Shown in pieces: positions 49,071 through 62,360 of a stretch of DNA of 64,000 nt. A model generated the notes under the pieces. It made no database searches, had not been told where the DNA came from, and saw nothing but the letters and a program-made list of their open reading frames with translations. A program made the position numbers and the translations under genes. Where the stretch lies: contig CAVTBU010000006.1 of the NCBI GenBank assembly GCA_963733035.1, forward strand, positions 192,001-256,000, written 5' to 3'. This DNA comes from Pirellulales bacterium (lineage in GTDB: Bacteria; Planctomycetota; Planctomycetia; Pirellulales; PALSA-1355). The number at the start of each line of letters is the position of its first letter. Position 1 is the first letter of the stretch.

Positions 49071-49238
49071 CAGCAGTCAGAGAGCTCAACGCATATCTCG
49101 ACCTGGCTCGAACCGGCAAGATTTTCAGATTTCCCCATGAACCCACGAAACCCTTCCGGCGTCTAAGGTGTCGACAGGGTCGAGGCCGTGTTGGCGTCCG
49201 ACTGCAGTTGTGACAAGCTTTTACGGGTTGTTCCTTCC

Positions 49239-49319
49239 ATGATGTTCTTACGGCCAAGACTGTTCCAAGAACACGTAGCCGGGAGTTATTGCGCAGCACA
49301 AACGATTGCTGCAAGGTAA
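49239..49319 (+). CDS. Putative 26-aa leader peptide of the tRNA array
   Basis: MMFLRPRLFQEHVAGSYCAAQTIAAR*; rich in A/T-ending and AGR codons; overlaps alternative hairpins. Confidence 0.5.
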   Translation: MMFLRPRLFQEHVAGSYCAAQTIAAR

Positions 49320-49375
49320 TTCCCCCGCGCTACCGCTACGCTTGTGACGCTTGGCCTTTAGGTCTGCTGGCTGCC

Positions 49376-49409
49376 AAAGCCCGATGTCACAAGGACATCG
49401 GGCTTTTTT
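49376..49409 (+). terminator. Intrinsic terminator upstream of the first tRNA (attenuator)
   Basis: AAAGCCCGATGTC-ACAAG-GACATCGGGCTTT followed by a T-run. Confidence 0.85.
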
Positions 49410-49455
49410 GTTAGCCTCATGTCGCGCGACAGCGGGAACCAAACAACAAACGAAT

Positions 49456-49527
49456 GGGTCGGTAGCTGAGACGGTTTAGCGGTGGCCTGAAAAGCCGCAG
49501 ACGAGGATTCGAGCGCCTCCCGACCCA
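49456..49527 (+). tRNA. tRNA-Phe(GAA), irregular T-loop
   Basis: Anticodon arm GTGGC-CTGAAAA-GCCGC. Confidence 0.7.
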
Positions 49528-49563
49528 CTGCGCTCTGCGTGCGCGCTGACGGAGAACACTCAC

Positions 49564-49636
49564 GGCTCGTTCGTCTATCGGTTCAGGATACTGCCCTTTC
49601 AAGGCGGAGAGGTGGGTTCGATTCCCACACGAGCTA
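49564..49636 (+). tRNA. tRNA-Glu(TTC)
   Basis: CTGCC-CTTTCAA-GGCGG; GGTTCGATTCC. Confidence 0.9.
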
Positions 49637-49654
49637 CTGAAGCAACAAAATCAT

Positions 49655-49726
49655 CGGGCTGAAGAGGGACGGCGCCTCGCGTGCCTTGGGAGCACGAGAC
49701 AGTCGGTTCGACTCCGACCTGCCCGA
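49655..49726 (+). tRNA. tRNA-Pro(TGG)
   Basis: CGTGC-CTTGGGA-GCACG. Confidence 0.8.
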
Positions 49727-49736
49727 CTTGCGTGAC

Positions 49737-49808
49737 GGTAGTTGAGGGCTGGTTGCCCAAACCCGGCTGATAACCAGGTGGCGCTGAGTTCGATTCTCAG
49801 AACTACCA
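49737..49808 (+). tRNA. tRNA-Ile(GAT)
   Basis: Loop CTGATAA; GGTAGTT/AACTACC acceptor. Confidence 0.75.
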
Positions 49809-49887
49809 CTGAACGAGAGATCACAAGAAGGAGAAACGACGTTGGCAACTCGCATGCGACTCAAACGCATACGCCCACTCCACATTC

Positions 49888-49959
49888 GGGGTCGTGGCGT
49901 AACGGCAGCGCTTCCGCCTTTTAAGCGGGAAGGTAAGGGTTCGACTCCCTTCGGCCCCA
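49888..49959 (+). tRNA. tRNA-Lys(TTT)
   Basis: TCCGC-CTTTTAA-GCGGG. Confidence 0.88.
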
Positions 49960-49987
49960 CTGCGTTGGCTTCGGCCAGCGATCGCGG

Positions 49988-50060
49988 CGGCGCGTAGCTC
50001 AGTGGTGAGAGCAGGTCTCTTATAAGGACCAGGTCGAGGGTTCGATTCCCTCCGCGCCCA
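49988..50060 (+). tRNA. tRNA-Ile(TAT), rare anticodon
   Basis: Canonical TAGCTCAGTGG D-arm; GGTCT-CTTATAA-GGACC. Confidence 0.88.
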
Positions 50061-50092
50061 CTGTGCGCGCAGAAACGAGGAACAACACGAAC

Positions 50093-50165
50093 GGGATCAA
50101 GGTGCTAGCGGCAGCATGCCTGGCTCTTAACCAGGTCGGTGAGGGTTCAAGTCCCTCTGATCCCA
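50093..50165 (+). tRNA. tRNA-Lys(CTT)
   Basis: CCTGG-CTCTTAA-CCAGG. Confidence 0.88.
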
Positions 50166-50168
50166 CTG

Positions 50169-50264
50169 GAAACAGGCGAGAGGCACGAGGCCACAGGCTA
50201 GAGGGCGACCTTGAACCTCTACTGCTGACCTCTGGTCTCTCGCCTCAGGCCTCTGGCCTGTTTC
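50169..50264 (+). repeat. Heptamer-repeat palindromic hairpin (REP-like)
   Basis: GAAACAGGC (nnnAGGC)x3 ... (GCCTnnn)xn GCCTGTTTC. Confidence 0.7.
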
Positions 50265-50294
50265 GATCTTTGACAATTCGACCAGCGATTCGAC

Positions 50295-50361
50295 GCGCCC
50301 ATGATGTAGCGGTAGCCTGCTGCCTTGCCATGGCGTGCGGGTTCAACTCCCGCTGGGCGCT
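50295..50361 (+). tRNA. tRNA-Gly(GCC), shortened (variable region deleted)
   Basis: GCGCCCA/TGGGCGC acceptor, loop TTGCCAT, only ~67 nt. Confidence 0.65.
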
Positions 50362-50368
50362 TCAATTT

Positions 50369-50442
50369 CAGGGTGTGGGATAGCCTGGTAGTCCGCCTGC
50401 GTCGGGAGCAGGAGAGCGTCGGTTCAATTCCGACCACCCTGA
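50369..50442 (+). tRNA. tRNA-Pro(CGG)
   Basis: CCTGC-GTCGGGA-GCAGG. Confidence 0.88.
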
Positions 50443-50480
50443 CTTTTTGAGAACGCTCTGACCGGTACAATGAGCGAATC

Positions 50481-50798
50481 ATGAATTGGCTTACGCCGTG
50501 GACTCCGATTGTCGAAAGCGATCGCGCGGAAATGCTGACTACCGAACTTCGTCGCGAAGTTGGAGTCGGCCACGTGCTGTTCGGCATTCCGGTAAAACCA
50601 ATTGCAATTCGCCAAGATTGCGACGACGTGCTCTTCGAGCTTCTTGATGGCTCGGGCCGATTCGCCGTCACTCACTTGACGTACGCTCAGCATCCCGAGC
50701 CAGATTCGCAATGGCCTGCAACTCGTCTCTGTGACGATTTGACTCAATTCGAGCGGAGCATCATGCACGTCGATCATTCGACCGCGACCGGCTTATAG
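50481..50798 (+). CDS. Small hypothetical protein inserted in the tRNA array
   Basis: 105-aa ORF filling the gap between two tRNA-Pro genes; EL.RE...GH.L...RQDCDDVLF...VTHLTY. Confidence 0.7.
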   Translation: MNWLTPWTPIVESDRAEMLTTELRREVGVGHVLFGIPVKPIAIRQDCDDVLFELLDGSGRFAVTHLTYAQHPEPDSQWPATRLCDDLTQFERSIMHVDHSTATGL

Positions 50799-50815
50799 CG
50801 ATCGACTCCAGCTCG

Positions 50816-50889
50816 GAGGGTGTAGCGAAGCCTGGCATCGCGCAAGCTCGGGGAGCTTGAGATCGCAGGTTCAAATCCTGCCACCCTGA
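50816..50889 (+). tRNA. tRNA-Pro(GGG), C33
   Basis: CAAGC-TCGGGGA-GCTTG. Confidence 0.8.
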
Positions 50890-50908
50890 CTCGAACGTCG
50901 TCGATTGT

Positions 50909-51457
50909 TCAGCGCTTCCAAATCGTTACGTCGCTGCTGATCGCGATCAATAGCGTTCGGCCAGTGTACGAAAAGCCAAACCCGCGAAGCTCACGCTCAA
51001 TGGCTAGTTTCCAGAATCGTGAGGCAGGTGGATAGATGCTCTCGTACTTGCCAAGAAGCAAAAGACTTGTGTCCGGCCAATCGATGGACAAGGCTTCGAC
51101 GCCCCATCCGTCATCGGTCTGAGTCGGGAGGCCACCACCGACAAGTCCACAGACGCGAATCTCCCTTCCATCAAGTGGACCAAATCCGATGGCAGTCATG
51201 GCGTCTTTGCCGAACCACGATTCTTGATCTGATTCGTCACGATCTCGAGCGACTTTTTCGCCGGTGCGGCAATCGATGATTCCACGCCCTTGAGACGACA
51301 GTACCAGTAGCAGTTCAGAGTCGTCCGCAAAACCAATCTCAGTAAGTCCGCCAATTGCGACGGACGCGACGAACGACCATGGCTCTGGCGGAGCGGTGAC
51401 CGCAGCACGGCGAATTTTGTCTCGCACAGGTTCGAGGTGGTCCATAAGGTTTGCCAT
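50909..51457 (-). CDS. Hypothetical protein antisense within the tRNA array
   Basis: 182-aa ORF that fills the inter-tRNA gap exactly. Confidence 0.7.
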   Translation of the reverse strand: MANLMDHLEPVRDKIRRAAVTAPPEPWSFVASVAIGGLTEIGFADDSELLLVLSSQGRGIIDCRTGEKVARDRDESDQESWFGKDAMTAIGFGPLDGREIRVCGLVGGGLPTQTDDGWGVEALSIDWPDTSLLLLGKYESIYPPASRFWKLAIERELRGFGFSYTGRTLLIAISSDVTIWKR

Positions 51458-51500
51458 GGGTTCATAGGATGGCTCGCCAGTATACCGGATTGATCAATAT

Positions 51501-51575
51501 TGCGGTGGGGCCTGTGTTGGTACAGGCAGGCGCCTGTTAAGCGCCCCTTCGCAGGTTCGATTCCTGCCGCCGCAG
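51501..51575 (+). tRNA. tRNA-Asn(GTT)
   Basis: GGCGC-CTGTTAA-GCGCC. Confidence 0.88.
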
Positions 51576-51587
51576 CTTTCTAGGGAC

Positions 51588-51671
51588 GGAAGGGCAAGCC
51601 AATGGGCGATGGCAGCTGTTTCGAAAACAGTCGAGCGATGAGCCTTGAGGGTTCGACTCCCTCTCCTTCCG
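51588..51671 (+). tRNA. tRNA-Ser(CGA)
   Basis: GCTGT-TTCGAAA-ACAGT; long variable arm. Confidence 0.88.
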
Positions 51672-51675
51672 CTTC

Positions 51676-51747
51676 GTGCTCTTGGCCGATCGGCAGAGGC
51701 GTCAGCCTTCCAAGCTGAACAGGCGGGTTCGATTCCCGCAGAGCACT
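51676..51747 (+). tRNA. tRNA-Gly(TCC)
   Basis: TCAGC-CTTCCAA-GCTGA. Confidence 0.88.
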
Positions 51748-51760
51748 TTCGATCAATCAT

Positions 51761-51831
51761 TCGGGGATCGGCTAATGGTCGGCCGCCTGGCTTTGAACCA
51801 GGCTATGGTAGTTCGAATCTACCTCCCCGAG
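51761..51831 (+). tRNA. tRNA-Gln(TTG)
   Basis: CCTGG-CTTTGAA-CCAGG. Confidence 0.88.
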
Positions 51832-51840
51832 CTTGGAAGA

Positions 51841-51887
51841 CTACCGCCCTGCGCTCGATTGCCGCCCGGCAATCGTGCTCGGTTGCT
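51841..51887 (+). repeat. 47-nt hairpin mini-element (copy 1) inside a tRNA remnant
   Basis: CTACCGCCCTGCGCTCG-ATTGCC-GCCC-GGCAAT-CGTGCTCGGTTGCT, followed by a T-arm/acceptor 3' half. Confidence 0.8.
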
Positions 51888-51925
51888 GGTTTGATTCCTT
51901 CTCCCCGAACTCGGTGACAAAACAT

Positions 51926-52000
51926 TCCGGGGTAGCTGCTGCTGGTAGTGGCGCCTGGCTCTGAACCAGGAGGTCGTTGGTTCGATTCCAACTCCCGGAG
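51926..52000 (+). tRNA. tRNA-Gln(CTG)
   Basis: CCTGG-CTCTGAA-CCAGG. Confidence 0.88.
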
Positions 52001-52020
52001 CTGTTTCGAACGACACGATC

Positions 52021-52106
52021 GGAAGTCATCCGGCCGGATGAGGAGCCTGTCTTGAAAACAGGTGGCGGCCTCGCGCCGCTTGTGGGTTCGAGTCCCACGG
52101 CTTCCG
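52021..52106 (+). tRNA. tRNA-Ser(TGA)
   Basis: CCTGT-CTTGAAA-ACAGG; long variable arm. Confidence 0.88.
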
Positions 52107-52134
52107 CTCAACAGGTCGATTCGTTCAGCAACAC

Positions 52135-52205
52135 AGTCCCGTGGTCCAACGGCAAGACTCCTGCGTCACATCCAGGAAACGATGGTTCAACTCCATCCGG
52201 GACTA
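52135..52205 (+). tRNA. tRNA-Val(CAC)
   Basis: Loop GTCACAT; one stem mismatch. Confidence 0.75.
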
Positions 52206-52211
52206 CTCGAT

Positions 52212-52285
52212 GTCCAGGTACGCCAATTGGCAGAGCGGCACGGCTTAAACCCGCGCGGATGCCGGTTCGACTCCGGCCTTGGGCA
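52212..52285 (+). tRNA. tRNA-Leu(TAA), short variable loop
   Basis: CACGG-CTTAAAC-CCGCG. Confidence 0.8.
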
Positions 52286-52295
52286 CTGTCAACGC

Positions 52296-52368
52296 GGCTC
52301 GGTCGGCAACGGCAGACCACCTTGGCTTAGAACCAAGGATGCTGTGGGTTCGAATCCCACCTGAGCTA
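52296..52368 (+). tRNA. tRNA-Leu(TAG), short variable loop
   Basis: CTTGG-CTTAGAA-CCAAG. Confidence 0.85.
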
Positions 52369-52382
52369 TTTAGTAGAGACTC

Positions 52383-52457
52383 GTCCTCGTGGAGTAGTCT
52401 GGAGTGCTCGCCTGCCTGTCACGCAGGAGATCACGGGTTCAAATCCCGTCGGGGACG
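52383..52457 (+). tRNA. tRNA-Asp(GTC)
   Basis: CCTGC-CTGTCAC-GCAGG. Confidence 0.92.
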
Positions 52458-52539
52458 CCTTTTGATTGTTGTACGCGAAATCGTCTGTGGCGCGGAGTGT
52501 TCCGCAACGCCTCGACGAACTGCAACGCAACGTAAATCT

Positions 52540-52613
52540 GGCACGGTACGCCAATCGGCTGAGCGGCGAAGCTCAAACCTTCGTGTCTGCGGGTTCGACT
52601 CCCGCCTGTGCCA
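52540..52613 (+). tRNA. tRNA-Leu(CAA), short variable loop
   Basis: CGAAG-CTCAAAC-CTTCG. Confidence 0.85.
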
Positions 52614-52619
52614 CTGTTC

Positions 52620-52706
52620 GGGTTGTGCTCCTCGTGGCGGCCTGTAAAGCCGTTGTCACAAAAGAAGCGAGGTGGGCGACGAATGGTTCGATTCCTTCAC
52701 AACCCA
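52620..52706 (+). tRNA. tRNA-Tyr(GTA)-like, lacking a D-arm, long variable region
   Basis: GGGTTGT/ACAACCC acceptor; GCGGC-CTGTAAA-GCCGT. Confidence 0.65.
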
Positions 52707-52711
52707 ATTGA

Positions 52712-52784
52712 GGCCCGCTCGTCTATCGGTTGAGGACGCCAGCCTCTCAAGCTGGAAGGACGGGTTCGATTCCCGTGCGGGTCA
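52712..52784 (+). tRNA. tRNA-Glu(CTC)
   Basis: CCAGC-CTCTCAA-GCTGG. Confidence 0.9.
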
Positions 52785-52790
52785 CTGTAT

Positions 52791-52873
52791 GGCCAAGTGG
52801 TGTAACTGGTAAACACGCGACGCTCAGAACGTCGTGCCCTTGCGGCGTGGGAGTTCGAGTCTCCCCTTGGTCA
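52791..52873 (+). tRNA. tRNA-Leu(CAG), long variable arm
   Basis: CGACG-CTCAGAA-CGTCG. Confidence 0.9.
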
Positions 52874-52890
52874 CTGAAATATTGAATTGA

Positions 52891-52959
52891 CGCAGGTGAG
52901 CCAGTGCTCAGCCGAGTTTCATAAGCTCAGCCCGTCGGGTGCGACACCCGAACCTGCAA
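52891..52959 (+). tRNA. tRNA-Met(CAT), initiator-like C1:A72, degenerate
   Basis: Loop TTCATAA, short D-arm, T-loop TGCGACA. Confidence 0.6.
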
Positions 52960-52964
52960 CTTAC

Positions 52965-53040
52965 GGCCGGGTACGCAAACTGGCAAAGCGACGAGGTCGA
53001 GAGCCTCGTGATTTTGTGAGTTCGACTCTCACTCCGGTCA
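52965..53040 (+). tRNA. tRNA-Leu(GAG), C33, short variable loop
   Basis: CGAGG-TCGAGAG-CCTCG. Confidence 0.8.
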
Positions 53041-53069
53041 CTTGAATGAGATTGCGGCCAAAACTGATC

Positions 53070-53507
53070 CTACAGTGCGAGCACGCGGCACACCTCTCGA
53101 ATCCAGATCTCACCGATCCATTCCAGGTCGGCATACGGAGAGATGCGTGAAGCGGTCCAGCCGCTTTCGTCGAGTACTCGCATCATGCCGGGTGCCGCCA
53201 AGGCGTTCGTTGTGTGGATGATCACTGGGCATGTCGGCGGTTTCGTCGCGAGAAAGTCGGCCACATCGCGTCCGGTGCCGGGGTCACGCATGACACCGCC
53301 GATCAATCGGTTGGGTCCGAGATCGTGATCGAGGCAGATGAGAATCGGTTCGCCGCAGTGAACCTTCAGCCAGACGATCATATCTGGTGCATTGTCGAAC
53401 ACAATTGATTCATGGCCTGGGCAGCGACTTGCGAGGCACGGCAACATTGCGGCGATCCGTTCCGGCTCGTCGTCAAGAATTGCGACTACTTTTGATTCGC
53501 TTGCCAT
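53070..53507 (-). CDS. Cyclic-phosphate-processing receiver-like domain protein
   Basis: ILDD...ICLDHDLG...GTGRDVA...VIIHTTN pattern. Confidence 0.75.
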   Translation of the reverse strand: MASESKVVAILDDEPERIAAMLPCLASRCPGHESIVFDNAPDMIVWLKVHCGEPILICLDHDLGPNRLIGGVMRDPGTGRDVADFLATKPPTCPVIIHTTNALAAPGMMRVLDESGWTASRISPYADLEWIGEIWIREVCRVLAL

Positions 53508-53533
53508 GTCAACAAGTCTAACAAATCACATTC

Positions 53534-53606
53534 GATCCCGTGGTCCAACGGCTACGACGCCTGGATGACACCCAGGAGGCAGATGGTTCAACTCCATCCG
53601 GGATCA
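53534..53606 (+). tRNA. tRNA-Val(GAC)
   Basis: CCTGG-ATGACAC-CCAGG. Confidence 0.85.
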
Positions 53607-53616
53607 TTTGCGAATC

Positions 53617-53688
53617 GGTCTGTAGGTGTGTTCGGCGGCACACCTCCTCGGTAAGGAGGAAGGCCGGGTTCGACTCCCGGACGGACCT
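53617..53688 (+). tRNA. tRNA-Thr(GGT), C33
   Basis: CCTCC-TCGGTAA-GGAGG. Confidence 0.82.
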
Positions 53689-53757
53689 TCAACCGAGCAC
53701 GCGACATAGGCGTGCCGCGAGCGCAGGGCGAAAGGAATCGAGATGGATAGAAGTGAG

Positions 53758-53795
53758 GGGCTGCTGGTCCAACGGCAAGACGCTTGGATTGAAGT
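53758..53795 (+). pseudogene. 5' half of a tRNA-Ala-like gene, 3' half replaced by a hairpin
   Basis: GGGCTGCTGGTCCAACGGCAAGACGCTTGG resembles the start of the next tRNA-Ala; no T-arm follows. Confidence 0.6.
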
Positions 53796-53837
53796 CAGCG
53801 TCGATGGCAACGGCGGATCGACGCTCGTCAAATACAT

Positions 53838-53908
53838 GGGCTGCTCGTCCAACGGGAAGACGCCTGGCTTGCAACCAGGAAATCGGGGTTCGACTCCCCG
53901 GCGGTCCA
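53838..53908 (+). tRNA. tRNA-Ala(TGC)
   Basis: G3:U70; CCTGG-CTTGCAA-CCAGG. Confidence 0.9.
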
Positions 53909-53919
53909 CTGAATAAAAC

Positions 53920-53990
53920 GGGCTCATGGTCCAAAGGGAAGACATCAGGCTGGCAGTCTGAAGATCCGGGTTCAATTCCCGGTGAGTCCA
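53920..53990 (+). tRNA. tRNA-Ala(GGC)
   Basis: G3:U70; TCAGG-CTGGCAG-TCTGA. Confidence 0.88.
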
Positions 53991-54008
53991 CTGATACGGG
54001 AAACCTTT

Positions 54009-54311
54009 TTACATCGGAATACCGGCATCAATCGCAGCTTGTCGATTGTGGCCGGGTTCGAGAAGTGTCGTTCCTTGATAGACCTCGACGTTCGCGTCCA
54101 TGAGATCAGAAAGAGGCAGCTCAACATAGACCTGGGTATTACGGTCGGTCTCGACAACGTTGAACCACGGTTGTGCAACGAAACTGCGCACCTGGATTTC
54201 CAGTGACTCGCCGGGCAACAGCGTGAAGTCGTGAGGCCACGGCTCGACCCAAATGACGCGCAATTGCGCTTCGTCGTTGGTCACGCCGATCTTTGCGAAG
54301 AACTCACTCAT
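54009..54311 (-). CDS. Small hypothetical (immunity-like) protein
   Basis: 100-aa ORF in an inter-tRNA gap; VIWVEPW..DFTLLPGE. Confidence 0.6.
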   Translation of the reverse strand: MSEFFAKIGVTNDEAQLRVIWVEPWPHDFTLLPGESLEIQVRSFVAQPWFNVVETDRNTQVYVELPLSDLMDANVEVYQGTTLLEPGHNRQAAIDAGIPM

Positions 54312-54443
54312 TACCCTAGCGTATTGCGGAAGCGTACGACAAACAAGTGATTCGGAAGGTAGATGCTATGGCAGCGGCGAGGGACTGCGTTAGGCTCCGA
54401 GTCACGAGGGATTGTTTTATCCGTTGTTTTGAGGAGCTCAATC

Positions 54444-55622
54444 ATGGCCACTCGACCGCAAGACTGCAGCACAACGAAGCCAGTACTGTTCCTGGGTCTC
54501 GAATTAGGGCAGCGAACCTGGAAGTTGGGGTTCACCGTGGGTTTGGGTCAGAAGCCGCGGCGACGTGAGATCGCTGCCGGTTGCATTCAGGCACTGAAAC
54601 GAGAGATCAATGAGAGTAAGCAACGTTTTGGTCTGCCTGCGGATGTGGAGGTGATTAGCTGTTACGAGGCAGGCCGTGATGGGTTTTGGCTGCATCGTTG
54701 GCTGGTGTCTGAGAACGTCACAAACTTGGTGGTTGACTCGTCTAGCATTCAAGTGCCGCGGCGGCAGCGACGGGCCAAGACCGATCGTCTGGATTTGGAA
54801 CAATTGTTGACCATGTTGGTGCGCTGGCATCAGGGCGAGTCGAAAGTCTGGAGCGTGGTGACGGTGCCGAGTGAAGCGGAAGAGGACGTTCGGCATTTGC
54901 ATCGCGAGTTGGAAACGCTGCGGGCGGAACAGACCAGCCACATCAATCGAATCAAGGGGCTGTTGATCGGTTGCGGCGTGGTGATTGATGTGAACCGCTG
55001 GCTACCGAAACGGCTCAAAGCAATACGGCTTTGGAATGGCTCGCCGTTGACCAGCGATTTGCGGCAACGGGTATTGCGGGAGTTCGAGCGGATGCAGGTG
55101 GTCAATCGACAGGTTCGCGAGCTGGAAAAGGAGCGTGCCGCCCGGATTCGCAGCAACGAAACTGACAAGAGCGTCGCCCAGGTGCGGACGTTGTTGGGCG
55201 TGAAGGGCATCGGCGTCAACAGCGCGTGGATGTACGTGCAGGAGGTGTTTGGCTGGCGAAAGATCAAGAATCGTCGTCAATTGGGTGCGCTCGTGGGGCT
55301 GACCGGCAGTCCGTATAGCAGCGGCAACTTGGAGCGCGATCAGGGAATTACAAAGGCTGGAAACCGCCGGATGCGAACAATGGCTGTCGAAATCGCCTGG
55401 GGATGGTTGGCATTCCAACCCGGCAGCGATCTGAGCCGTTGGTATCACGATCGATTCGCGGCCGGAAACAAGCGTCTTCGTCGCATTGGAATTGTGGCGC
55501 TGGCAAGAAAGCTGTTGGTGGAGTTGTGGAAATACCTGGAGACCGGCGTGCCGCCTTGCAACGCGGAGCTGACCGAGTGGGAGGACAAGATTCACTACAC
55601 CCCTTCCCTTACGCCGGCGTAG
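54444..55622 (+). CDS. IS110 family transposase/recombinase
   Basis: LGLELG, CYEAG, KTDRLD, GIG, SSG and ITKAGN motifs; GAGGAG SD. Confidence 0.92.
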   Translation: MATRPQDCSTTKPVLFLGLELGQRTWKLGFTVGLGQKPRRREIAAGCIQALKREINESKQRFGLPADVEVISCYEAGRDGFWLHRWLVSENVTNLVVDSSSIQVPRRQRRAKTDRLDLEQLLTMLVRWHQGESKVWSVVTVPSEAEEDVRHLHRELETLRAEQTSHINRIKGLLIGCGVVIDVNRWLPKRLKAIRLWNGSPLTSDLRQRVLREFERMQVVNRQVRELEKERAARIRSNETDKSVAQVRTLLGVKGIGVNSAWMYVQEVFGWRKIKNRRQLGALVGLTGSPYSSGNLERDQGITKAGNRRMRTMAVEIAWGWLAFQPGSDLSRWYHDRFAAGNKRLRRIGIVALARKLLVELWKYLETGVPPCNAELTEWEDKIHYTPSLTPA

Positions 55623-55629
55623 CGATTGG

Positions 55630-55860
55630 ATCGGTGCGAGTATGGAGCGTCTGAACGACTGACGTCGAGACTGGAAAGCGACCGAGTATCCGGCGGGTAC
55701 GAGTTAGGCTCACCGAAAGGTAGATGGGATCGCTTTCATTATGGCTTCCCGAGAGCGTCCAGGACGCATAGGGCATAGGGTGATCGGCGATGATGCCGGC
55801 ACGGATAGAAGCTAGTCGTTGGCCTCGGCCACAACGATCAGCGGAAGCCGCCAGTCATGA
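55630..55860 (+). ncRNA. Candidate bridge/seek RNA of the IS110 element
   Basis: Contains AAGGTAG (target left flank + core) and ATAGAAG (element right end + core); boundaries approximate. Confidence 0.6.
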
Positions 55861-56218
55861 CGTTGAACCGACAGAAGAAGTGTTTTGAGGAATGGCAGGA
55901 CAAATGAATGTGCATCCCAGCACGGCTCCAGCCGCGGCGTGCGGCCAGAGCCGTCACGGAATCATTCACCCGCCCTGACCTGGCTATCCCTTGTTGGGTT
56001 GCTCTTCAGCAGAGCTCAACTCCGTTTCACCAGGCAGGCGAAAGTATATCACGACTCAACGTTGGATGAGGAGCTTGACAGGTGCGCATCCATAGAAGCC
56101 GGATACGGTTGGCCGGGCCGCTCTGCTAAGGCGGTTCCCGCTCGTCGGGATGAGGGTTCGAATCGGGCACCGCGGCAAAGCCGTGGTCTACCTTCCGCTG
56201 GTGAAAAGGCTCCTCCAA

Positions 56219-56581
56219 TCACTTCGCCTGTTCCACGTCGATCGCGGCCCGCAGCTCCTCAACATTCGCGAATTGTTGAAGTGGAAGATCGAACGAGTAG
56301 TCGAGATCAATGATTCGAAGGGGGATGCCGAGATGCCTTTGAACGATCAGCGCGGCACTTAGGGCGGCGTCTGTCATCCCCGATATCGAGATCGCGTCGC
56401 GTTTCCGGCTGAGGTCGACCATCGTGAAGTCGTCGCCCTCAGAATAGTCCGCTTCAATTGGGATTCCGATGGACGTATTATATCGAATCTCACCGAATCC
56501 CCTGACCGACTTGAAAATGTCTTGCAACGCCTCGACGGTAAATAGCCGTTTGTCGTCGCTGAACAGCAGAAGACTTTGCAT
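56219..56581 (-). CDS. Putative cognate immunity protein
   Basis: 120-aa acidic ORF starting 16 nt after the toxin stop. Confidence 0.65.
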   Translation of the reverse strand: MQSLLLFSDDKRLFTVEALQDIFKSVRGFGEIRYNTSIGIPIEADYSEGDDFTMVDLSRKRDAISISGMTDAALSAALIVQRHLGIPLRIIDLDYSFDLPLQQFANVEELRAAIDVEQAK

Positions 56582-56596
56582 AGCAATTACGTACTC

Positions 56597-57867
56597 CTAG
56601 GGCTCGAGTCGCACCTTGCCGGGCACGGATAGTTCCTTGAGCAGGGCTTCAAAAGCTGACTTCGCCTCGGGCGAGTTGGTGATGATTTCGATTGATTTAA
56701 AAGGCGTTTCGCCACTCTTGATAATTGTGCGAACTCTCGTCAAATCGTCACGCACTTTGTCCAGAATCACGGCCCGGATGTCCTCTCGGATAGATGAGCC
56801 GGGCACATAAGGACTCTTGCCGGCCTTCGCTACGTGCTTCGCTTCAAGAATTATCGTATCCCGGTATCCATCGATTGCAAAAGACTGGCCGCCGCCTGAT
56901 ATCGTGTAGTTGTAGGGGCCGGTCTGCTTGATTTCATATTGACTCGCTGCCGATTTCGTGGGTGTAGGCTTGCGAGGAAGCTTCGCGACGAAGTCATCAA
57001 GAGTGCCTCCCACTTTTCCAGGAACTTTGCGAAGCGCCCTGCCGAGCACAGCCTTCCCGAGTCGCAGGATTGCCGGTGCGGCCACGACGGCGGATGCAAT
57101 TTCAAACTCAATGCCGGTTGACTGCAAACCACTCGGTGTGCCGCCCCTGGCTACGGCATGCCCGACTTCCTCGATACCCTTGCCACCGACGATCGTCTCT
57201 GCCGGGGTGAACGCCGAATGCTGTTTCGCTGGGCGTGATAGCTCTTAATGCGTTTCGGCAATTCCTTGATTTGGCGACGGGTGTGATCCAATGCATTCTT
57301 TGTCTGCCACCAAGCGTGTGCCAGGTCCAGCATGTGTGAGTCGGAACCGTCGGACTCGTCGCTTCCGCCGCTACCGGGCCCCTTGCTGCGGGGTGAGCGA
57401 CTCTTGCCGGTGTTGATTCCGCCCCCACCGCCCCCCTTATTGATCCACTGCCCGCCGATCGGCGTTCCCTTGGGCGCCCGGGGATGATCGGCCTCGTTCC
57501 ATTCGACAACAAGTGAGTCTGATTCAGTGAATCGCTCGATCGCATGCCACGTCCTGCTGTCCCGTGCCTCGATCTGTTGAATCGCACGCAGTTTGTCTTC
57601 CGCCTCGGCCGAGATCTGAGCTGCCCATTCCAGAAGCTCACGATCGCGACGAGCGTTGGCTTCGGCGGATTGCAGCTCGCGCAGCTCCTTTGCCTGTCGA
57701 TACGAGAATCGTGCTAGCCGCCCCAACTCCTCGCGTTGAGCTTTCGCCTGTGCCTCGGGAGGCATCATTCGTGGAATCGGCCTACCGAGAATCGCTTGTG
57801 CAAATAGCCAACCTTCGCTGGGCTGCGAAACTCCGGCGACATCCCGTGTCTTTTTGTAACGGTCCAT
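56597..57867 (-). CDS. Polymorphic toxin with restriction-endonuclease-fold (Tox-REase-2-like) C-terminus, frameshift near 57240
   Basis: N-terminus LFAQAILG / RDRELLEW / EWNEADHPR; C-terminus YE...IDG...LEAK...SPY...EIITN (PD-D/ExK); GAGGAG SD. Confidence 0.75.
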
Positions 57868-57891
57868 GACGCTCCTCTTCATGGGTGCGAG

Positions 57892-58088
57892 AAAAAGAGC
57901 CCGCACCCGGTGCGCGCTTCGCAAGCGCGCACCGATTACGGGCTCTTTGGATACTCGTTGTCAGGGGCCTACTGGCACGAGGACGTGCAGTCGAGCTCTT
58001 CGGATACCCCGGTCACTCATGGTGACCTTGCCCAGCGATCAGCTCGCCGATTGATTCGGAACCTAGCACAAAGGGCGGCCTAGTTTCT
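57892..58088 (-). promoter_or_regulatory. Conserved leader: putative promoter, structured RNA and intrinsic terminator (copy 2)
   Basis: TAGAAA-18-TAGGTT with extended TG; shares TGAGTGACCGGGGTATCCGAAGAGCTCGAC...CCTGACAACGAGTATCC...GAGCCCGTAATCGG with copy 1. Confidence 0.75.
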
Positions 58089-58179
58089 AGTCGAAGATTT
58101 AATGGAGTGATTGGTCTGAGCAAATACGTCGCGCGAACCGTGCGGCGTGGATCTGTTTCCTTTTCTAATGTCTCAGCTC

Positions 58180-58269
58180 GCCTCGATGGTGAAACGGACG
58201 ATCACTCCTTGCTTCTAACAAGGCCCGGTATTTCTGGGAGACGCGGGGGTTCGAATCCTGGTCGGGGCA
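58180..58269 (+). tRNA. tRNA-Arg(TCT), degenerate (insertion in variable region, weak T-stem)
   Basis: GCCTCGA/TCGGGGC acceptor; CCTTG-CTTCTAA-CAAGG. Confidence 0.6.
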
Positions 58270-58279
58270 TTTTGAAGAA

Positions 58280-58312
58280 GAGTGGTTGGTGGTCAGTGGC
58301 TAGTGGTCAGTG
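58280..58312 (+). repeat. Short heptamer tandem repeat (AGTGGTY)n
   Basis: AGTGGTT GGTGGTC AGTGGCT AGTGGTC AGTG. Confidence 0.65.
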
Positions 58313-58368
58313 AAGCAAGGGGCGGCGAACACAAAGCGTGCTCGTCTGTCCTACCTGTGGCCTGTGGT

Positions 58369-58415
58369 CTACCGCCCTGCGCTCGGCAGATGCCCATCTG
58401 CCGTGCTCGGTTGCT
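58369..58415 (+). repeat. 47-nt hairpin mini-element (copy 2) inside a tRNA remnant
   Basis: CTACCGCCCTGCGCTCG-GCAGAT-GCCC-ATCTGC-CGTGCTCGGTTGCT followed by GGTTCAATTCCT. Confidence 0.8.
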
Positions 58416-58616
58416 GGTTCAATTCCTCGGCGAGGCACTGAGAAGGCGGCGAGTTGAATGATCATGTTGCGAGCGATCCTAACAGCGTTGAGACGATTCC
58501 TGTTTGGCCAGCCTGTGGCCAGCAGGGTGACCGCGAAGAAACCGTCGGCAGAAGCCGTCGCGTGTGCGGTCGTTCATTCGACGACGTCGGCGGATCGCAA
58601 CGAAGGGAGGCCTACC

Positions 58617-59108
58617 ATGAACGCAGCCTATGACAAACTATGCGAACACCTGACCAACCAGAACGTCGGCTTTTGGTCGCGCAGCGAGGACTTGTCGATC
58701 TGCACCGACTTTCGGGGCGAGGTCGGTACGTACCGGATCTTCGCTCGGATTGATGCTGATGACAGCTTGTTCCAGGTCTTCGGTCATTCGCCGGTTCGCG
58801 TTCCGCCAGGCTCGCGGCCGGCGATCGCCGAGGCCGTGGCGCGGATCAACTGCGGTCTGAAGGTCGGCAAGTTCGAGATGGATTGTGACGAGGGCGAGCT
58901 GCGGTTCCAGGCGGCCCAGATCCTGCCCGACGACGATCTCGACGAGCAGACGATTCGGCGACTGATTGGTACGACCATGTCGATGTTGAACATTTACCTT
59001 CCGGCCATCTTGTCGGTCATCTACGGCAACGAACTGCCGAAGGATGCCGTCAGACACGCAGAGCCCGGGCGGTATGTGTCCGACGAAAACGAGCGCGGTG
59101 AGGCCTGA
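58617..59108 (+). CDS. YbjN-like (CesT-fold) protein
   Basis: GGGAGG SD; AEAVARIN.GLKVGKFEMD..EGELRF. Confidence 0.75.
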   Translation: MNAAYDKLCEHLTNQNVGFWSRSEDLSICTDFRGEVGTYRIFARIDADDSLFQVFGHSPVRVPPGSRPAIAEAVARINCGLKVGKFEMDCDEGELRFQAAQILPDDDLDEQTIRRLIGTTMSMLNIYLPAILSVIYGNELPKDAVRHAEPGRYVSDENERGEA

Positions 59109-59121
59109 TCACCGCGCATTT

Positions 59122-59194
59122 GTCCTCGGAGTGTGCCGGATTCGCACGCGACCCTGCGAAGGTCGAGGACCAGGTTCAACTCCTGGCGAGGACA
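59122..59194 (+). tRNA. tRNA-Arg(GCG), rare anticodon
   Basis: CGACC-CTGCGAA-GGTCG; GTCCTCG/CGAGGAC acceptor. Confidence 0.85.
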
Positions 59195-59241
59195 TTTTGG
59201 AATGTCGCGGGATTGTGTACCGTAGTAGCGGGAGACACTCA

Positions 59242-59706
59242 ATGAACTTGCAGCATGAAAATCACGGTCCCTTGCCGACGCGCGAGGACATTAATGTCTT
59301 CGACTCGCTTGACGAACGTTGCGCTTGCGATCACTTTTTGGGCAAGAACATGGACGAGGCTCAGGCACTGTTCAGTGATAATTTCTTGCGTTACCAGGAG
59401 GATTTGGTGTTTATGGGGCCTCGTGCCTTCCGCTTCTACGTTCATGCTGCCATGCAATACCTCATGAGCCCCGATGCCTCAGGTGACGGCGATGCCGCCA
59501 ACAGTTTCGCAGGGCTACTTGAATTCAGACTTGAACATGAGAGGAACGAAGTGCAGCCAGTGGCAGGTGAGCTAGCGCGGATATGCAATTACCTCTTCGA
59601 AAATATTAGTCGATTCGAATGTGAGCCATCCATCTATGGCGATGTTGGCGCTCGTTATGCAGCTCTGAATAGCGCGCTCGAACAACTCGCCACGACACAG
59701 CCCTAA
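59242..59706 (+). CDS. Hypothetical (immunity-like) protein
   Basis: GGAGA SD; SLDE..A..HF.GK...EDL.FMGPRAF.FY. Confidence 0.65.
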   Translation: MNLQHENHGPLPTREDINVFDSLDERCACDHFLGKNMDEAQALFSDNFLRYQEDLVFMGPRAFRFYVHAAMQYLMSPDASGDGDAANSFAGLLEFRLEHERNEVQPVAGELARICNYLFENISRFECEPSIYGDVGARYAALNSALEQLATTQP

Positions 59707-59750
59707 CCCAACATGGTCCGGCTCGTGCAGCAGCATCAATTCTCAAATCT

Positions 59751-59822
59751 GACGCTGAAGCCAGACGGCGTGGCAACTGCCTGCAAAGCAGTTCACAGCG
59801 GGTTCGACTCCCGCCGGCGTCT
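59751..59822 (+). tRNA. tRNA-Cys(GCA)
   Basis: ACTGC-CTGCAAA-GCAGT; U73. Confidence 0.88.
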
Positions 59823-59967
59823 TTCAACGAAGTCAGAAAGGAGATTGAAGCGAGGTTGATTCAGCCGGTTCCAGCGGCGCGCGGTGGCTCGTCCTTGATG
59901 AAAGGCGATTGCTACACGTGTGTTCCGTGAATGGGTTCTGCAGAAGGCTGCGTCTACCGCAACCAAC

Positions 59968-60039
59968 AGATGGTTAGCTCAGTGGGTAGAGCACCAGACT
60001 TTGCATCTGGCTGTCACGGGTTCGACTCCCGTACCAAAC
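59968..60039 (+). ncRNA. tRNA-like RNA with incomplete acceptor stem
   Basis: Canonical D and T arms; CCAGA-CTTTGCA-TCTGG; only 4 bp of acceptor stem. Confidence 0.55.
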
Positions 60040-60439
60040 GCGGCGAAAGCCGCCCGAGGGGCGCCGGTCAGCGCCGTCCAACCGCCCGCGGGGGCGGGCA
60101 AGCCTAGGTCTGCCGCTGGCATTGTGCTCGCATGGCGCGGTTTCGCGTCGTGACGTGTCACATGTCGGTGGCAACACAAGACGGTGCCTTGCAGTGCGCA
60201 GATTCCGCTTGTGCGAGTCCTTGGCAACGACGAACCGACGCCGTTGGCAATGCGAGAGCCATGCTCACGCAGCGCCTTCGGCTGAGCCAAACTGGCGCCT
60301 TGGATAGCACAAGCTCAAGCGCACTCCGCATACGGATGTGGGACCGACGTCTCGCTTCGCCCCCAAGGGCATTTTTATGCGAACTAACTCGGTGGCTCGG
60401 ACGTCCAATACGTTCATGCACCGAGAGGAGGAATAAACA

Positions 60440-61354
60440 ATGAATATCTACATCATCAAGACCATCAAGATCCGCAGCTACGAAATGGGTCTGTACTTCC
60501 GCGACGGCGAGTTCCGTGGCTTGCTGCGCGAAGGTCGCCACTGGTTCGTAGATCCGCTGGGGAAGGCCAAGATCGAGGTCGTATCGCAGCGGCAGCCGTG
60601 GCTGGCGCACGAGAAGCTCGACGTGATCTCGCGCTCGGGTGCGCTCGAGGACCGCGCGGTGGTGCTGGACCTGAAGGACTACGAACGGGCTTTGGTCTGG
60701 ATCGATGGTCACTTCAGCCACATCCTGCCGCCGGGCCTGTACGCCTACTGGACGGCTCTGCGTGACGTGAAGGTCGAGGTGGTCGATGCCCGCAAGGCGC
60801 GGTTCGAGCACCCGGATCTGAAGGTCATCCTGCAGTCGCCGCTGGTGGACCGTGTGCTGTCGCTGGCGACGGTGCAGGCGCACCACATGGGCGTGTTGTT
60901 CATCGACGGCGACTTCGTCGAGACGTTGCCGCCGGGCCGCTACGCCTTCTGGAAGAACCTGGCTCAGGTCAAGTTCGTCGAGGAGGATATGCGCGAGGCG
61001 ATGTTCGACGTGGCCGGCCAGGACATCATGACGGCCGATAAGGTGACGCTGCGAATGACCGAGCTGATGGAGAAGTTCCCGGTCCACGTGGTGTGCGGCT
61101 GGACCGGCAACAGCGAGGCGATCGCGCTGAAGCACTACCTCCAGGTCACCGACGACCATTTCGAGCGGGCCGTGCGGGGCGAGGCCGAGATCGGGCCGGA
61201 AGTCACGCCGACTGTTACCAACACTCTCGCCAACACAACGGCGCAAAAGCGGCGCAGCATGCGCACGCAGGGGGTAGCGGCGAGCAGCAGGCGGCTCAGG
61301 GCACCAACGCAAAAGCCCCGGGATTGCCGGGGCCTGCGACTTCCCGCGATATAG
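60440..61354 (+). pseudogene. Truncated slipin (SPFH/band-7) gene fused to the C-terminal remnant of a tyrosine integrase
   Basis: Slipin to GQDIMTADKVTLRM (~61057), then TELMEKFPVHVVCGWTGNSEAIALKHYLQV; AGGAGG SD. Confidence 0.78.
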
Positions 61355-61649: not shown

Positions 61650-62360
61650 CTACTCTGAACCAAGCCGATACCCGATGCCTGGCTCGGTCAGTAGATACTG
61701 GGGGCGGGAGGGGTCGGACTCGATCTTGCGGCGCAGGTGGGCCATGTAGACGCGGAGGTAGTGCGTCTCGAACACGCTGTCGGGGCCCCAGACTTCCTTG
61801 AGGAGCTGCCGGTGGGTGACGAGCTTGCCGCCGTGGCGGATGAGGGTCGTCAGCAGCCGATGCTCGATGGGAGTGAGGTGCACCTCCTTTTCGCCGACGA
61901 AGACCTGGTGTCGGCCGAAGTCGACGCGCAGCTCGCCAAGGGTGAACACGGGGGCGTCTGCTTCGGAAACTTCTGGCAACCGCCGCAGCGCCACTCGGAC
62001 GCGGGCCAGTAGTTCGCCGACGCCGAACGGCTTCGTCAAGTAATCATCCGCGCCACTGTCGAGTGCCTTGATCTTGTCGGCCTCGTTTCCGCGCGCGGAC
62101 AGGACGATGATCGGGACATTCGACCACTGGCGCAGCTTGCGAATCACCGACAGCCCATCGATGTCCGGCAAGCCCAGGTCCAGCAGCAGCAAGGCGGGCT
62201 TCTCGTCCTTCGCTTTCTGCAGCCCATCCTCGCCTGTCGGCGATTCCAGCACACGATATCCACTGCCGAGCAACGTGGCTCGCAGGAATCTGCGAATCTC
62301 TGCCTCATCCTCGATGATGAGGATTCTTGGGAATTGAGCCGGGACTGGTTCCTTAACCAT
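61650..62360 (-). CDS. kdpE: KdpE response regulator
   Basis: LDLGLPD, ALDSGADDY, THRQLLKEVWG, HYLRVYMAHLRRK.E.DP.RP. Confidence 0.92.
   Translation of the reverse strand: MVKEPVPAQFPRILIIEDEAEIRRFLRATLLGSGYRVLESPTGEDGLQKAKDEKPALLLLDLGLPDIDGLSVIRKLRQWSNVPIIVLSARGNEADKIKALDSGADDYLTKPFGVGELLARVRVALRRLPEVSEADAPVFTLGELRVDFGRHQVFVGEKEVHLTPIEHRLLTTLIRHGGKLVTHRQLLKEVWGPDSVFETHYLRVYMAHLRRKIESDPSRPQYLLTEPGIGYRLGSE

Follow-up and report, generated by a model that had tools for sequence, protein, structure and literature searches.

A duplicated, partly decayed long tRNA array of a Pirellulales bacterium and the putative leader-peptide attenuator of its family

Several phyla contain long supernumerary tRNA arrays, and the timing and manner of their use are largely open. 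In the one case studied, the array of Anabaena sp. PCC 7120 (trn operon; Santamaria-Gomez et al. 2021), expression is induced by ribosome-targeting antibiotics, and the array aids survival. Its regulation, which it shares with an HNH gene and rtcB, depends on direct repeats that span the -10 box and the transcription start (PMC8421152). Planctomycetes are among the long-array phyla in two surveys (PMC4758250, PMC8421152), and the supplement of the latter lists arrays of 26 and 10 for Rhodopirellula baltica SH 1 and of 23 for Pirellula sp. SH-Sr6A. According to Kim et al. 2016 (PMC4807772), the genomes of many planctomycetes contain degenerate clusters of tRNA genes, among which tRNA-Ile(UAU) is canonical. 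The present work concerns an array of a Pirellulales bacterium (assembly GCA_963733035.1; 6.65 Mb, 60% G+C, 10 contigs) that starts at position 49456 of a 64,000-nucleotide stretch of contig CAVTBU010000006.1 (G000:C6:192001-256000, termed the window). With moderate confidence, it is regarded as belonging to a mobile spare tRNA operon of planctomycetes (about 40 tRNAs and an HNH gene), which is present here in two overlapping copies, both partly decayed, and which in intact relatives is equipped with a ribosome-mediated attenuator.

tRNA genes were called with ARAGORN in the window and the genome, and the Rfam tRNA model at its gathering score served as second caller. With ARAGORN, the window gave 30 tRNA genes between 49456 and 59822, every one of them on the plus strand. 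Twenty-seven intact tRNAs are packed on this strand into 4,536 bases (49456-53991), which corresponds to about 6 per kb, compared with about 1 per 128 kb for the 52 dispersed tRNAs in 6.65 Mb. The Rfam model gave 25 window matches above the gathering score, including two that ARAGORN missed (50295-50361 and 59971-60036). Array units have been defined by at least 20 tRNA genes at a density of at least 2 per kb (PMC4758250); both were found here, together with a single strand orientation. The locus belongs to the long tRNA arrays ("L-arrays") in their planctomycete form, in which an HNH endonuclease gene is embedded, and this kind of array has already been reported in the phylum.

An earlier reading made from the letters of the window alone (the sequence-only reading) had counted 30 co-oriented tRNAs in 49456-53990 and 18 amino acids for the array as a whole. 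The common orientation was found as described, while ARAGORN gave 27 tRNAs in this part and 16 amino acids overall; 30 tRNAs are reached only with three remnants added, and 18 amino acids only with the Tyr-like and the CAT remnant. The same reading was right about the presence of Arg(GCG) and Cys(GCA), about the existence of remnants, of which there are five (Gly(GCC), Tyr-like, CAT, Ser(GCT) and Arg(TCT)), and about the lack of His and Trp in the window. Both of the latter lie in a second block beyond the window end, at the window-equivalent positions 73557 and 74281. The sequences are indeed far from the usual consensus, with a median Rfam score of approx. 52.8 bits for 39 array matches compared with approx. 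66.3 bits for 46 dispersed ones (medians counted by hand from the score table). Its remark that no array tRNA encodes CCA was correct as well (0 of 44), but this is no trait of the array, since only one of the 52 dispersed tRNAs encodes it; as a genome-wide trait it carries no weight for the interpretation. The sole CCA-encoding gene among all 96 tRNAs is a tRNA-Trp. The base after the discriminator is C in 31 of the 44 array tRNAs and in 35 of the 52 dispersed ones, mostly followed by T in both sets. A tmRNA gene was not found by ARAGORN in the 10 contigs.

Forty-four of the 96 tRNAs of the genome lie in C6:241456-268483 and 52 are scattered, so the array runs beyond the window end. The part in the window (block A) is followed by block B (window-equivalent 70190-76703) with a disrupted Phe, Leu CAG, Leu GAG, Val GAC, Ala TGC, a damaged Ala GGC, Ser GCT, Arg TCT, His, Trp, Thr TGT, Arg CCG, Arg TCG, Arg GCG and Cys. 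Both blocks are paralogous by BLAST and have the leader, several tRNAs, an IS110-type segment, a YbjN ORF and a downstream SPFH gene in common. The dispersed set comprises 46 anticodons. The array has 35, of which 34 duplicate dispersed ones and only Arg(GCG) is new. The backup pool proposed by the sequence-only reading is therefore supernumerary beside a complete dispersed set, and the case that it had named against itself, namely that the array holds the genome's only tRNA copies, does not apply. Array and dispersed tRNAs with the same anticodon are 53-75% identical (median 62%, 42 pairs). The identity of the 44 array tRNAs to their best positional orthologues in the arrays of other genera has a median of 91.5%.

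The array might also supply tRNAs for the rare A/T-ending codons of acquired, AT-richer genes. It contains Ile(TAT), Leu(TAA) and Arg(TCT), its best-scoring member is Ile(TAT) with 67.2 bits, and such a role has been proposed for planctomycete tRNA-UAU (PMC4807772). Given that the array adds a single anticodon to the dispersed set and that gating by a terminator would be odd for a constitutive need, this supplement to codon usage appears very improbable.

The gene order is shared by ten loci of relatives with 23-38 tRNAs each. It reads Phe, Glu, Pro, Ile, Lys, Ile(TAT), Lys, Thr, Gly, Pro, (Pro), Asn, Ser, Gly, Gln, Gln, (Ser), Val, Leu, Leu, Asp, Leu, Tyr, Glu, Leu, (Met), Leu, Val, Thr, Ala, Ala, Ser, Arg, His, gap, Trp, Thr, Arg, Arg, Arg, Cys. 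Between His and Trp, the gap is occupied by the gene of an HNH endonuclease (198 aa), with the same orientation as the array. It was found in 13 rows from 12 genomes of relatives with 66-97% amino-acid identity. In the genome studied here, this ORF is located in block B just beyond the window, and block A is without that segment. An SPFH gene follows the array in three relatives (G039, G403 and G015) and both blocks here, while the flanks otherwise differ among eight relatives, one of the same genus included. The distribution is patchy, and with the variable surroundings it would fit a horizontal spread. In a BLAST survey of 401 sampled genomes of the order (187 genera; 301 high-quality genomes), the leader was detected in 45 genomes and 33 genera, and in 28 of the high-quality genomes. 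The samples of Planctomycetota covered in total comprised 401 and 151 genomes. The similarity of orthologous tRNAs across differing flanks, the identity of the HNH proteins and the maintained position of the leader stop codon described below point to purifying selection on array and leader.

The array resembles the cyanobacterial L-arrays in several respects. In both cases, a long supernumerary array on one strand is found beside a dispersed housekeeping set, the distribution is patchy, and there is a link to HNH genes as well as rtcB-type genes near some copies (PMC8421152). On a Nostoc plasmid, the gene of a homologue with 37% identity to the HNH protein immediately precedes an array of 20 tRNAs; no tRNAs were found within 8 kb of four other plasmid homologues. 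Short, class-I-like Leu tRNAs are a further common trait: Leu CAA and Leu TAG of the Nostoc plasmid have 75-76 bases, and four of the five array Leu tRNAs (TAA, TAG, CAA and GAG; Table 1) have 73-77 bases with a short variable loop. The dispersed Leu tRNAs have 83-87 bases, and the short array ones keep A73. The two array kinds differ in gene order, with no colinear DNA match, and in the position of the HNH gene, which in planctomycetes is inside the array. They also differ in the region before the array, as Anabaena has promoter repeats (PMC8421152) and the planctomycete arrays have a leader ORF with terminator and antiterminator; the leader model gave no match at the Nostoc plasmid array.

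With the degenerate planctomycete clusters (PMC4807772), the array has the phylum, the kind of cluster and a canonical tRNA-Ile(UAU) among weaker tRNAs in common; the available passages of the three papers on such clusters (PMC4807772, PMC4758250, PMC8421152) are without a conserved order, an embedded HNH gene, a leader ORF or an attenuator. Like the array units of Mycobacterium and phages (PMC5966550, PMC6409571), it is of high density with more than 20 tRNA genes and associated with mobile or variable DNA. Unlike them, it is not colinear with any phage or plasmid record, and phage and plasmid collections searched by megablast and blastn gave single-tRNA matches only. A phage tRNA cluster was rejected for this lack of a colinear match and because the neighbouring ORFs are without phage structural or replication Pfam families.

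About 330 bases 5' of tRNA-Phe are conserved in both blocks and in the relatives, and the leader comprises approx. 240 of them. Thirty-eight leaders were used for the counts on antiterminator, ORF and promoter, and 31 for building a covariance model. The leader ends with a strong intrinsic terminator, for which the tool gave a stem of 13 pairs and a 5-base loop (an alternative hand parse with 12 pairs and a 7-base loop was used elsewhere). The terminator helix was paired in 98.4% of the cells, and its covariation score was reached by none of 500 shuffles. The loop hardly varies among the leaders, an uncommon trait in terminators that is apparently due to a second pairing, as loop and 5' arm together (element 2) can also pair with a conserved strand just upstream (element 1). 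This antiterminator was paired in 88.8% of the cells, compared with 26-44% when the partner was slid. Five of its pairs showed compensatory changes with 15 doubly changed cells, a value that none of 500 shuffles reached, and the covariation score of 0.188 was reached by two of 500. The clearest compensations came from distant AT-rich leaders. When the nascent RNA was folded without constraints and without the terminator 3' arm, element 1 paired with element 2 in all 38 leaders. In the window, the nascent RNA folds as antiterminator with -25 kcal/mol and the full-length RNA as terminator with -33.8 kcal/mol.

Thirty of the 38 leaders, from across the class, contain an ATG-initiated ORF of 29-62 codons with its stop inside element 1. 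The stop codon is TGA except for a TAA in one leader (G495c), where the paired base has changed too; in a further leader (G470c), this TAA is present without an ATG start. Across most of the order, the peptide starts with M(M)FLRPS.IQERI and ends with PLRL. The peptides of the distant family have diverged, with ...LRL kept before the stop. The 24 matched ORFs have 33, 35, 36, 42 or 44 codons, with length differences in multiples of three. Entropy at codon positions 1, 2 and 3 was 0.49, 0.66 and 0.90, respectively (18 aligned codons of 23 leaders, no formal test). Judged by this pattern, the ORF looks translated. The rarest codons are overrepresented in it by comparison with the window genome. 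In the long ORFs of the window genome, TTA makes up 2% of the Leu, ATA 4% of the Ile and AGA 2% of the Arg codons. TTA and ATA each occur in 20 of the 24 leader ORFs, which stem from GC-rich genomes, and there they account for 16% of the Leu and 51% of the Ile codons.

Promoters of extracytoplasmic function (ECF) sigma factors have a -35 element containing AAC and a -10 element containing CGT at a spacing of 16-17 bases. A motif of this type is present in 33 of the 38 leaders by pattern match, separated from the end of the T run by 201-288 bases, and we infer that transcription of the array starts from it. In its strict form, it was found in the genome at the two array leaders only. There are three looser sites in addition, none of which is followed by a recognisable sigma gene, and the motif is absent upstream of the genome's rtcB. 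The genome carries a planctomycete-type ECF sigma family and 44 PSD1 domains, of which none of 14 control genomes has any; a search of the genome for photosystem reaction-centre families gave no hit. The PSD1 domains indicate a member of the Planctomycetota, and a cyanobacterial host was rejected.

Outside the order, full-length copies of the leader were found with the covariance model in a single family of the class, which contributed three genomes. All seven copies (one in G403, three each in G470 and G495) precede tRNA arrays. Further full-length matches after ordinary ORFs in other classes (L087-L090) were rejected as plain terminators, and the remaining matches cover the terminator part only. 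In the genome studied here, a third, shortened and degenerate leader covers the full model length with 42.9 bits (G000:C6:7637-7756, i.e. L079:838-957). It has the promoter motif directly before the helices and is fused to the 3' part of an array tRNA that resembles Arg(TCG). It looks like the relic of another array.

The conserved layout of promoter motif, ORF, stop codon inside the antiterminator and terminator is best explained by ribosome-mediated attenuation. In relatives with an intact leader, transcription would start at the ECF-sigma-type promoter and pass through the leader of approx. 240 bases with its rare-codon ORF. The stop codon is placed inside the 5' strand of the antiterminator, and the 3' strand of the latter is the 5' arm and loop of the terminator. 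With healthy translation, a ribosome at the stop codon would cover element 1, so that the terminator folds and the array stays off. If ribosomes were slow, stalled or absent, as with cleaved or scarce tRNAs, antibiotics or starvation, element 1 would pair with element 2. This pairing would form first, and RNA polymerase would read through and produce the spare tRNAs. The stress induction proposed by the sequence-only reading is consistent with this model, and the argument for it is indirect, from the conserved attenuator of the relatives and the behaviour of the cyanobacterial array (PMC8421152).

A similar layout is familiar from leader-peptide attenuators. In trp-type attenuation, slow translation of the leader peptide gives read-through. 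The tylosin-responsive yxjB leader of Bacillus subtilis is an antibiotic-induced example (PMC6851288). Both share with the array leader a short ORF at the 5' side, an intrinsic terminator and an antiterminator that excludes the latter, with the choice between the two set by ribosome position, as is proposed for the array leader. They differ in that enzymes or resistance genes are controlled and not tRNAs. In addition, the array leaders have a mix of codons including TTA and ATA instead of a run of a single codon, and the stop codon is inside the antiterminator strand. A literature search for leader-peptide or attenuator control of tRNA genes or arrays yielded no paper, and a conserved attenuator of this kind before this array family appears to be undescribed. 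If correct, it would be a second and mechanistically transparent way of array control, in which a failure of translation would be signalled by the ribosome itself and a pool of spare tRNAs set free.

The helices could also belong to a switch that senses a protein, a small RNA or a metabolite, in which case the ORF would merely result from constraints on the RNA. Since element 1 hardly varies, the ...PLRL end could reflect the RNA alone; a Shine-Dalgarno motif is not evident, and the first third of the leader transcript also contains variable hairpins. On the other hand, the N-terminal half of the ORF is outside both helices and nevertheless conserved with third-position changes, insertions and deletions keep the frame, and the distant AT-rich leaders with diverged peptides still place the stop at the same spot. 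Moreover, no Rfam family matched the leader: up to an E-value of 1, there was one sub-threshold hit to an unrelated sRNA family (49360-49415; 28.7 bits compared with a gathering score of 50), and a T-box or another curated RNA leader found no support. A non-ribosomal switch is consequently judged to be unlikely.

Some findings weigh against the attenuator. Eight of the 38 leaders do not have the arrangement of ORF and stop, and no clear Shine-Dalgarno motif was seen before the leader ATG. The covariation is modest, and as the 38 sequences are related to each other, shuffle tests overstate their support. Element 1 overlaps the C-terminus of the ORF, which makes RNA and peptide constraints inseparable, and the comparison of rare codons borrows the codon usage of the window genome for the leaders of other genomes. 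No sigma gene is found beside the arrays in eight loci of relatives. The neighbouring ECF sigma gene of the window (44313-44879, with DUF6768) is an improbable candidate for the sigma factor of the array, as its own upstream region shares the -35 element but has a different -10 element. RNA-library contigs cover multi-tRNA stretches and, in one case, the terminator up to Phe, but they belong to relatives (four libraries, 88-99% alike) and are no evidence of transcription, of its start sites or of its termination. Transcription and translation are not known to be coupled in planctomycetes. Finally, both leaders of this genome are out of frame, so attenuation cannot work here as described, and an assembly error may be the cause of these frameshifts.

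The first 20 codons of the window ORF match the conserved leader peptide of the relatives, and the ancestral C-terminal part continues in the +1 frame. At a short CG tract, block A lacks two bases (window ~49288-49296) and block B lacks one (L001 ~5996-6010). Another genome (G262) lacks one base at the tract and a further one (G024) one base nearby, which makes four of the 11 leaders of the clade shifted at or near this site. Possibly the tract is a hotspot for mutations, or it serves as a crude on/off switch. The frameshifted stops fall 26 and 57 bases before element 1 in blocks A and B, respectively. A ribosome terminating there would be too far away to mask element 1, and constitutive read-through is predicted. 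By this model, the gate has probably been lost in this genome and is stuck open whenever the promoter fires. The array is in decay here, or possibly released from its gate. The window itself is more ordinary than the family, with a duplicated and decaying array of a known kind whose gate is probably broken.

A wider version of the attenuator model would make the operon self-sensing. Its rare-codon leader (TTA, ATA) would measure decoding capacity and free a full alternative tRNA set that needs neither inosine-34 nor lysidine, and frameshifts at the CG tract would flip it from gated to constitutive as a crude heritable switch. The array uses Arg GCG where the host has ACG, and Ile UAU where the host presumably has a lysidine tRNA. 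This version is put forward tentatively, as a possibility that is more likely wrong than right. The differing anticodon loops and the usage of Arg(GCG) and Ile(TAT) fit a foreign, self-sufficient tRNA pool and would be compatible with escape from nucleases.

Such an escape was also suggested by the sequence-only reading. The array tRNAs would differ enough from the host's to evade anticodon nucleases of phages, toxins or rival bacteria and would replace the damaged pool; mycobacterial arrays have been called a putative anti-defence system (PMC12803027). The 7-base anticodon loops are unlike the housekeeping ones in 27 of 42 comparable tRNAs, and several have A37 where the host has G37, but the loops of the other 15 are identical to the host's. 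Genes of the RNA-repair type are found in or beside arrays, namely the cyclic-phosphate-processing receiver cREC_REC in the window and at G018, RtcB immediately before the leader of G015, Ro60/TROVE at the array of G022 and a weak RNA-ligase match at G004, and block B contains a HEPN AbiV gene. However, these neighbours vary by genome and most are inserts that relatives lack, and no nuclease or cleavage site was identified. As the whole explanation, nuclease escape seems doubtful. It is no true alternative to the attenuator either, for tRNA cleavage would stall ribosomes and thus be compatible with it. RtcB of the window genome is encoded in two overlapping frames (G000:C5:873071-874377; profile positions 1-228 and 213-426), and that of G015 likewise in two ORFs (L014:11799-13176). 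The gene was either broken twice or is read in an unusual way.

The partial decay that the sequence-only reading had noted is evident: Thr(CGT), expected just 5' of the Gly(GCC) pseudogene, is lost, five tRNAs are damaged, inserts including an IS110-type element have been taken up, and both leader ORFs are frameshifted. The contigs of relatives have four more bases after 50334 in Gly(GCC). Tyr occupies the position of the Tyr-like remnant in the arrays of six relatives. Ser(GCT), described earlier as split, is 3'-truncated instead: 56094-56164 match the intact copy, there is no 3' half after the 2-kb insert, and between the joints 56144 and 58180 the contigs of relatives carry the 3' end of the tRNA. 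The degenerate Arg(TCT) was described correctly, as it has a 17-base insertion compared with the 73-base copy of block B. Insertions of 17-20 bases occur in three array tRNAs, namely in this one and in Ala GGC and Phe of block B (L001:7265-7353 and L001:6190-6281), and two of the three share one site, the junction of variable loop and T-stem. G3:U70 is kept in both Ala genes of the window.

An inert relic, horizontally acquired, silent and decaying, with a promoter and a terminator carried along upstream and an incidental ORF, would account for the many damaged genes, both frameshifted leader ORFs and the lower tRNA-model scores of the array. Planctomycete clusters have also been called degenerate and possibly dispensable (PMC4807772). 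It would not account for orthologues with a median identity of 91.5% across genera while the flanks differ, nor for HNH proteins that are 66-97% identical across the class. The same applies to the stop codon, which is held in element 1 in 30 of 38 leaders despite in-frame length changes and with one compensated change from TGA to TAA. A mere relic is quite unlikely.

The coordinates of the features are given in Table 1. The RNA contigs of relatives join across six stretches of the array, listed there as joints, and the ORFs between the tRNAs (cREC_REC, IS110, Tox-REase-2, YbjN and unknowns) are therefore regarded as inserts; gaps in the cover of these contigs over inserts carry no information. 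The cREC_REC ORF has no counterpart in most relatives, and a 62% identical copy is found inside the array of G018. The first third of an ORF at 59044-59706 overlaps Arg(GCG). As it matches relatives only in this overlap with the tRNA, its start is doubtful.

Table 1. Features of the array and its leader in the window (joint: positions directly joined in contigs of relatives; scores refer to the Rfam tRNA model unless stated otherwise)
Feature	Position	Strand	Remarks
ECF-sigma-like promoter motif	49139-49165	+	GAAC 49139-49142, 17-base spacer, CGTCTA 49160-49165; putative promoter
Leader ORF	49239-49319	+	26 codons, shortened by frameshift; stop TAA 49317-49319
Ancestral C-terminal part of leader ORF	49279-49347	+	+1 frame, ...PLRL, TGA 49345-49347; matches intact leader of G257
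Element 1 (antiterminator 5' strand)	49341-49356	+	contains conserved stop-codon position
Intrinsic terminator	49376-49409	+	13-pair stem, 5-base loop, T run; ~46 bases before tRNA-Phe
Element 2 (terminator 5' arm and loop)	49376-49394	+	alternative partner of element 1
Phe GAA	49456-49528	+	ARAGORN/Rfam
Glu TTC	49564-49637	+	ARAGORN/Rfam
Pro TGG	49655-49727	+	ARAGORN/Rfam
Ile GAT	49737-49809	+	ARAGORN/Rfam
Lys TTT	49888-49960	+	ARAGORN/Rfam
Ile TAT	49988-50061	+	ARAGORN/Rfam
Lys CTT	50093-50166	+	ARAGORN/Rfam
Gly(GCC) pseudogene	50295-50361	+	34.7 bits; 4-base deletion in anticodon arm
Pro CGG	50369-50443	+	ARAGORN
Spacer between Pro CGG and Pro GGG			372 bases; absent in relatives (joint 50443 to 50817)
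Pro GGG	50816-50890	+	ARAGORN
Antisense ORF	50909-51457	-	182 aa; no family match, no homologue in arrays of relatives
Asn GTT	51501-51576	+	
Ser CGA	51588-51672	+	
Gly TCC	51676-51747	+	
Gln TTG	51761-51832	+	
Gln CTG	51926-52001	+	
Ser TGA	52021-52107	+	
Val CAC	52135-52206	+	
Leu TAA	52212-52286	+	
Leu TAG	52296-52368	+	
Asp GTC	52383-52459	+	
Leu CAA	52540-52614	+	
Tyr(GTA)-like remnant	52619-52706	+	long variable arm; 24.3 bits on Sec model, E 0.49; no ARAGORN call
Glu CTC	52712-52785	+	ARAGORN
Leu CAG	52791-52874	+	ARAGORN
CAT-anticodon tRNA remnant	52893-52961	+	Met CAT at same place in G037 and G016
Leu GAG	52965-53041	+	ARAGORN
cREC_REC ORF	53070-53507	-	antisense; 145 aa, cyclic-phosphate-processing receiver, PF20274, E 1.1e-10; joint 53042 to 53533
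Val GAC	53534-53606	+	
Thr GGT	53617-53688	+	
Ala TGC	53838-53909	+	
Ala GGC	53920-53991	+	
Repeat	54354-56164	+	1,811 bases, 99.9% identical to block B copy; ends in 5' 71 bases of Ser(GCT)
IS110-family transposase ORF	54363-55622	+	within 1,811-base repeat; joint 53912 to 56098
Insert	56165-58179	-	2 kb, truncates Ser(GCT); three antisense ORFs; joint 56144 to 58180
Antisense ORF of 2-kb insert	56219-56581	-	
Antisense ORF of 2-kb insert	56597-57127	-	Tox-REase-2 domain
Antisense ORF of 2-kb insert	57151-57924	-	
Arg(TCT)	58180-58269	+	insertion at variable loop/T-stem junction; 31.8 bits, 52.8 bits in block B
YbjN-domain ORF	58458-59108	+	216 aa; insert, joint 58441 to 59122
Arg(GCG)	59121-59195	+	ARAGORN; 25.8 bits, below gathering score
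Insert	59197-59750		553 bases before Cys(GCA); absent in relatives (joint 59197 to 59751)
Cys(GCA)	59751-59822	+	last gene of unit
tRNA-like element	59971-60036	+	canonical D and T arms, TTG triplet in loop, ~4 acceptor pairs; 51.1 bits, model positions 4-67
SPFH/Band 7 gene, truncated	60392-61060	+	residues 1-223, 88% identity; full 386-aa copy after block B

The tRNA-like element has an identical-scoring copy after block B (L001:12633-12698), and both are located just past Cys; a former target of integration or a signal for processing is conceivable. Between the blocks, an OmpR-type response regulator (61650-62360) and a histidine kinase with DUF4118, GAF and HisKA domains (from 62420) are encoded on the minus strand, followed by three more large minus-strand ORFs beyond the window end. 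The layout resembles, in our view, a kdp-type operon. The AbiV ORF (L001:11748-12407) is positioned between Arg GCG and Cys of block B, where block A has a different insert. After block B, an ORF with an Mrr-type endonuclease domain (L001:14296-14676) and a BrxL-like Lon protease (L001:16689-18356, E 3.6e-221, profile positions 168-677 only) were found. PADLOC, applied to 21 ORFs, reported only AbiV, BrxL and generic HNH matches as well as weak Csm5-like noise on the Tox-REase-2 ORF.

Upstream of the array, there is a lone weak match to the tRNA model on the minus strand (45256-45328, 30.8 bits and thus barely above the gathering score) at a distance of 4 kb, for which ARAGORN gave no call. 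An amidase gene is divided into two overlapping ORFs (42433-43311 and 43290-43883) that correspond to profile positions 1-257 and 261-444, probably due to a frameshift. The G+C content falls to 0.56-0.58 over 44-60 kb of the window, compared with 0.60-0.64 outside.

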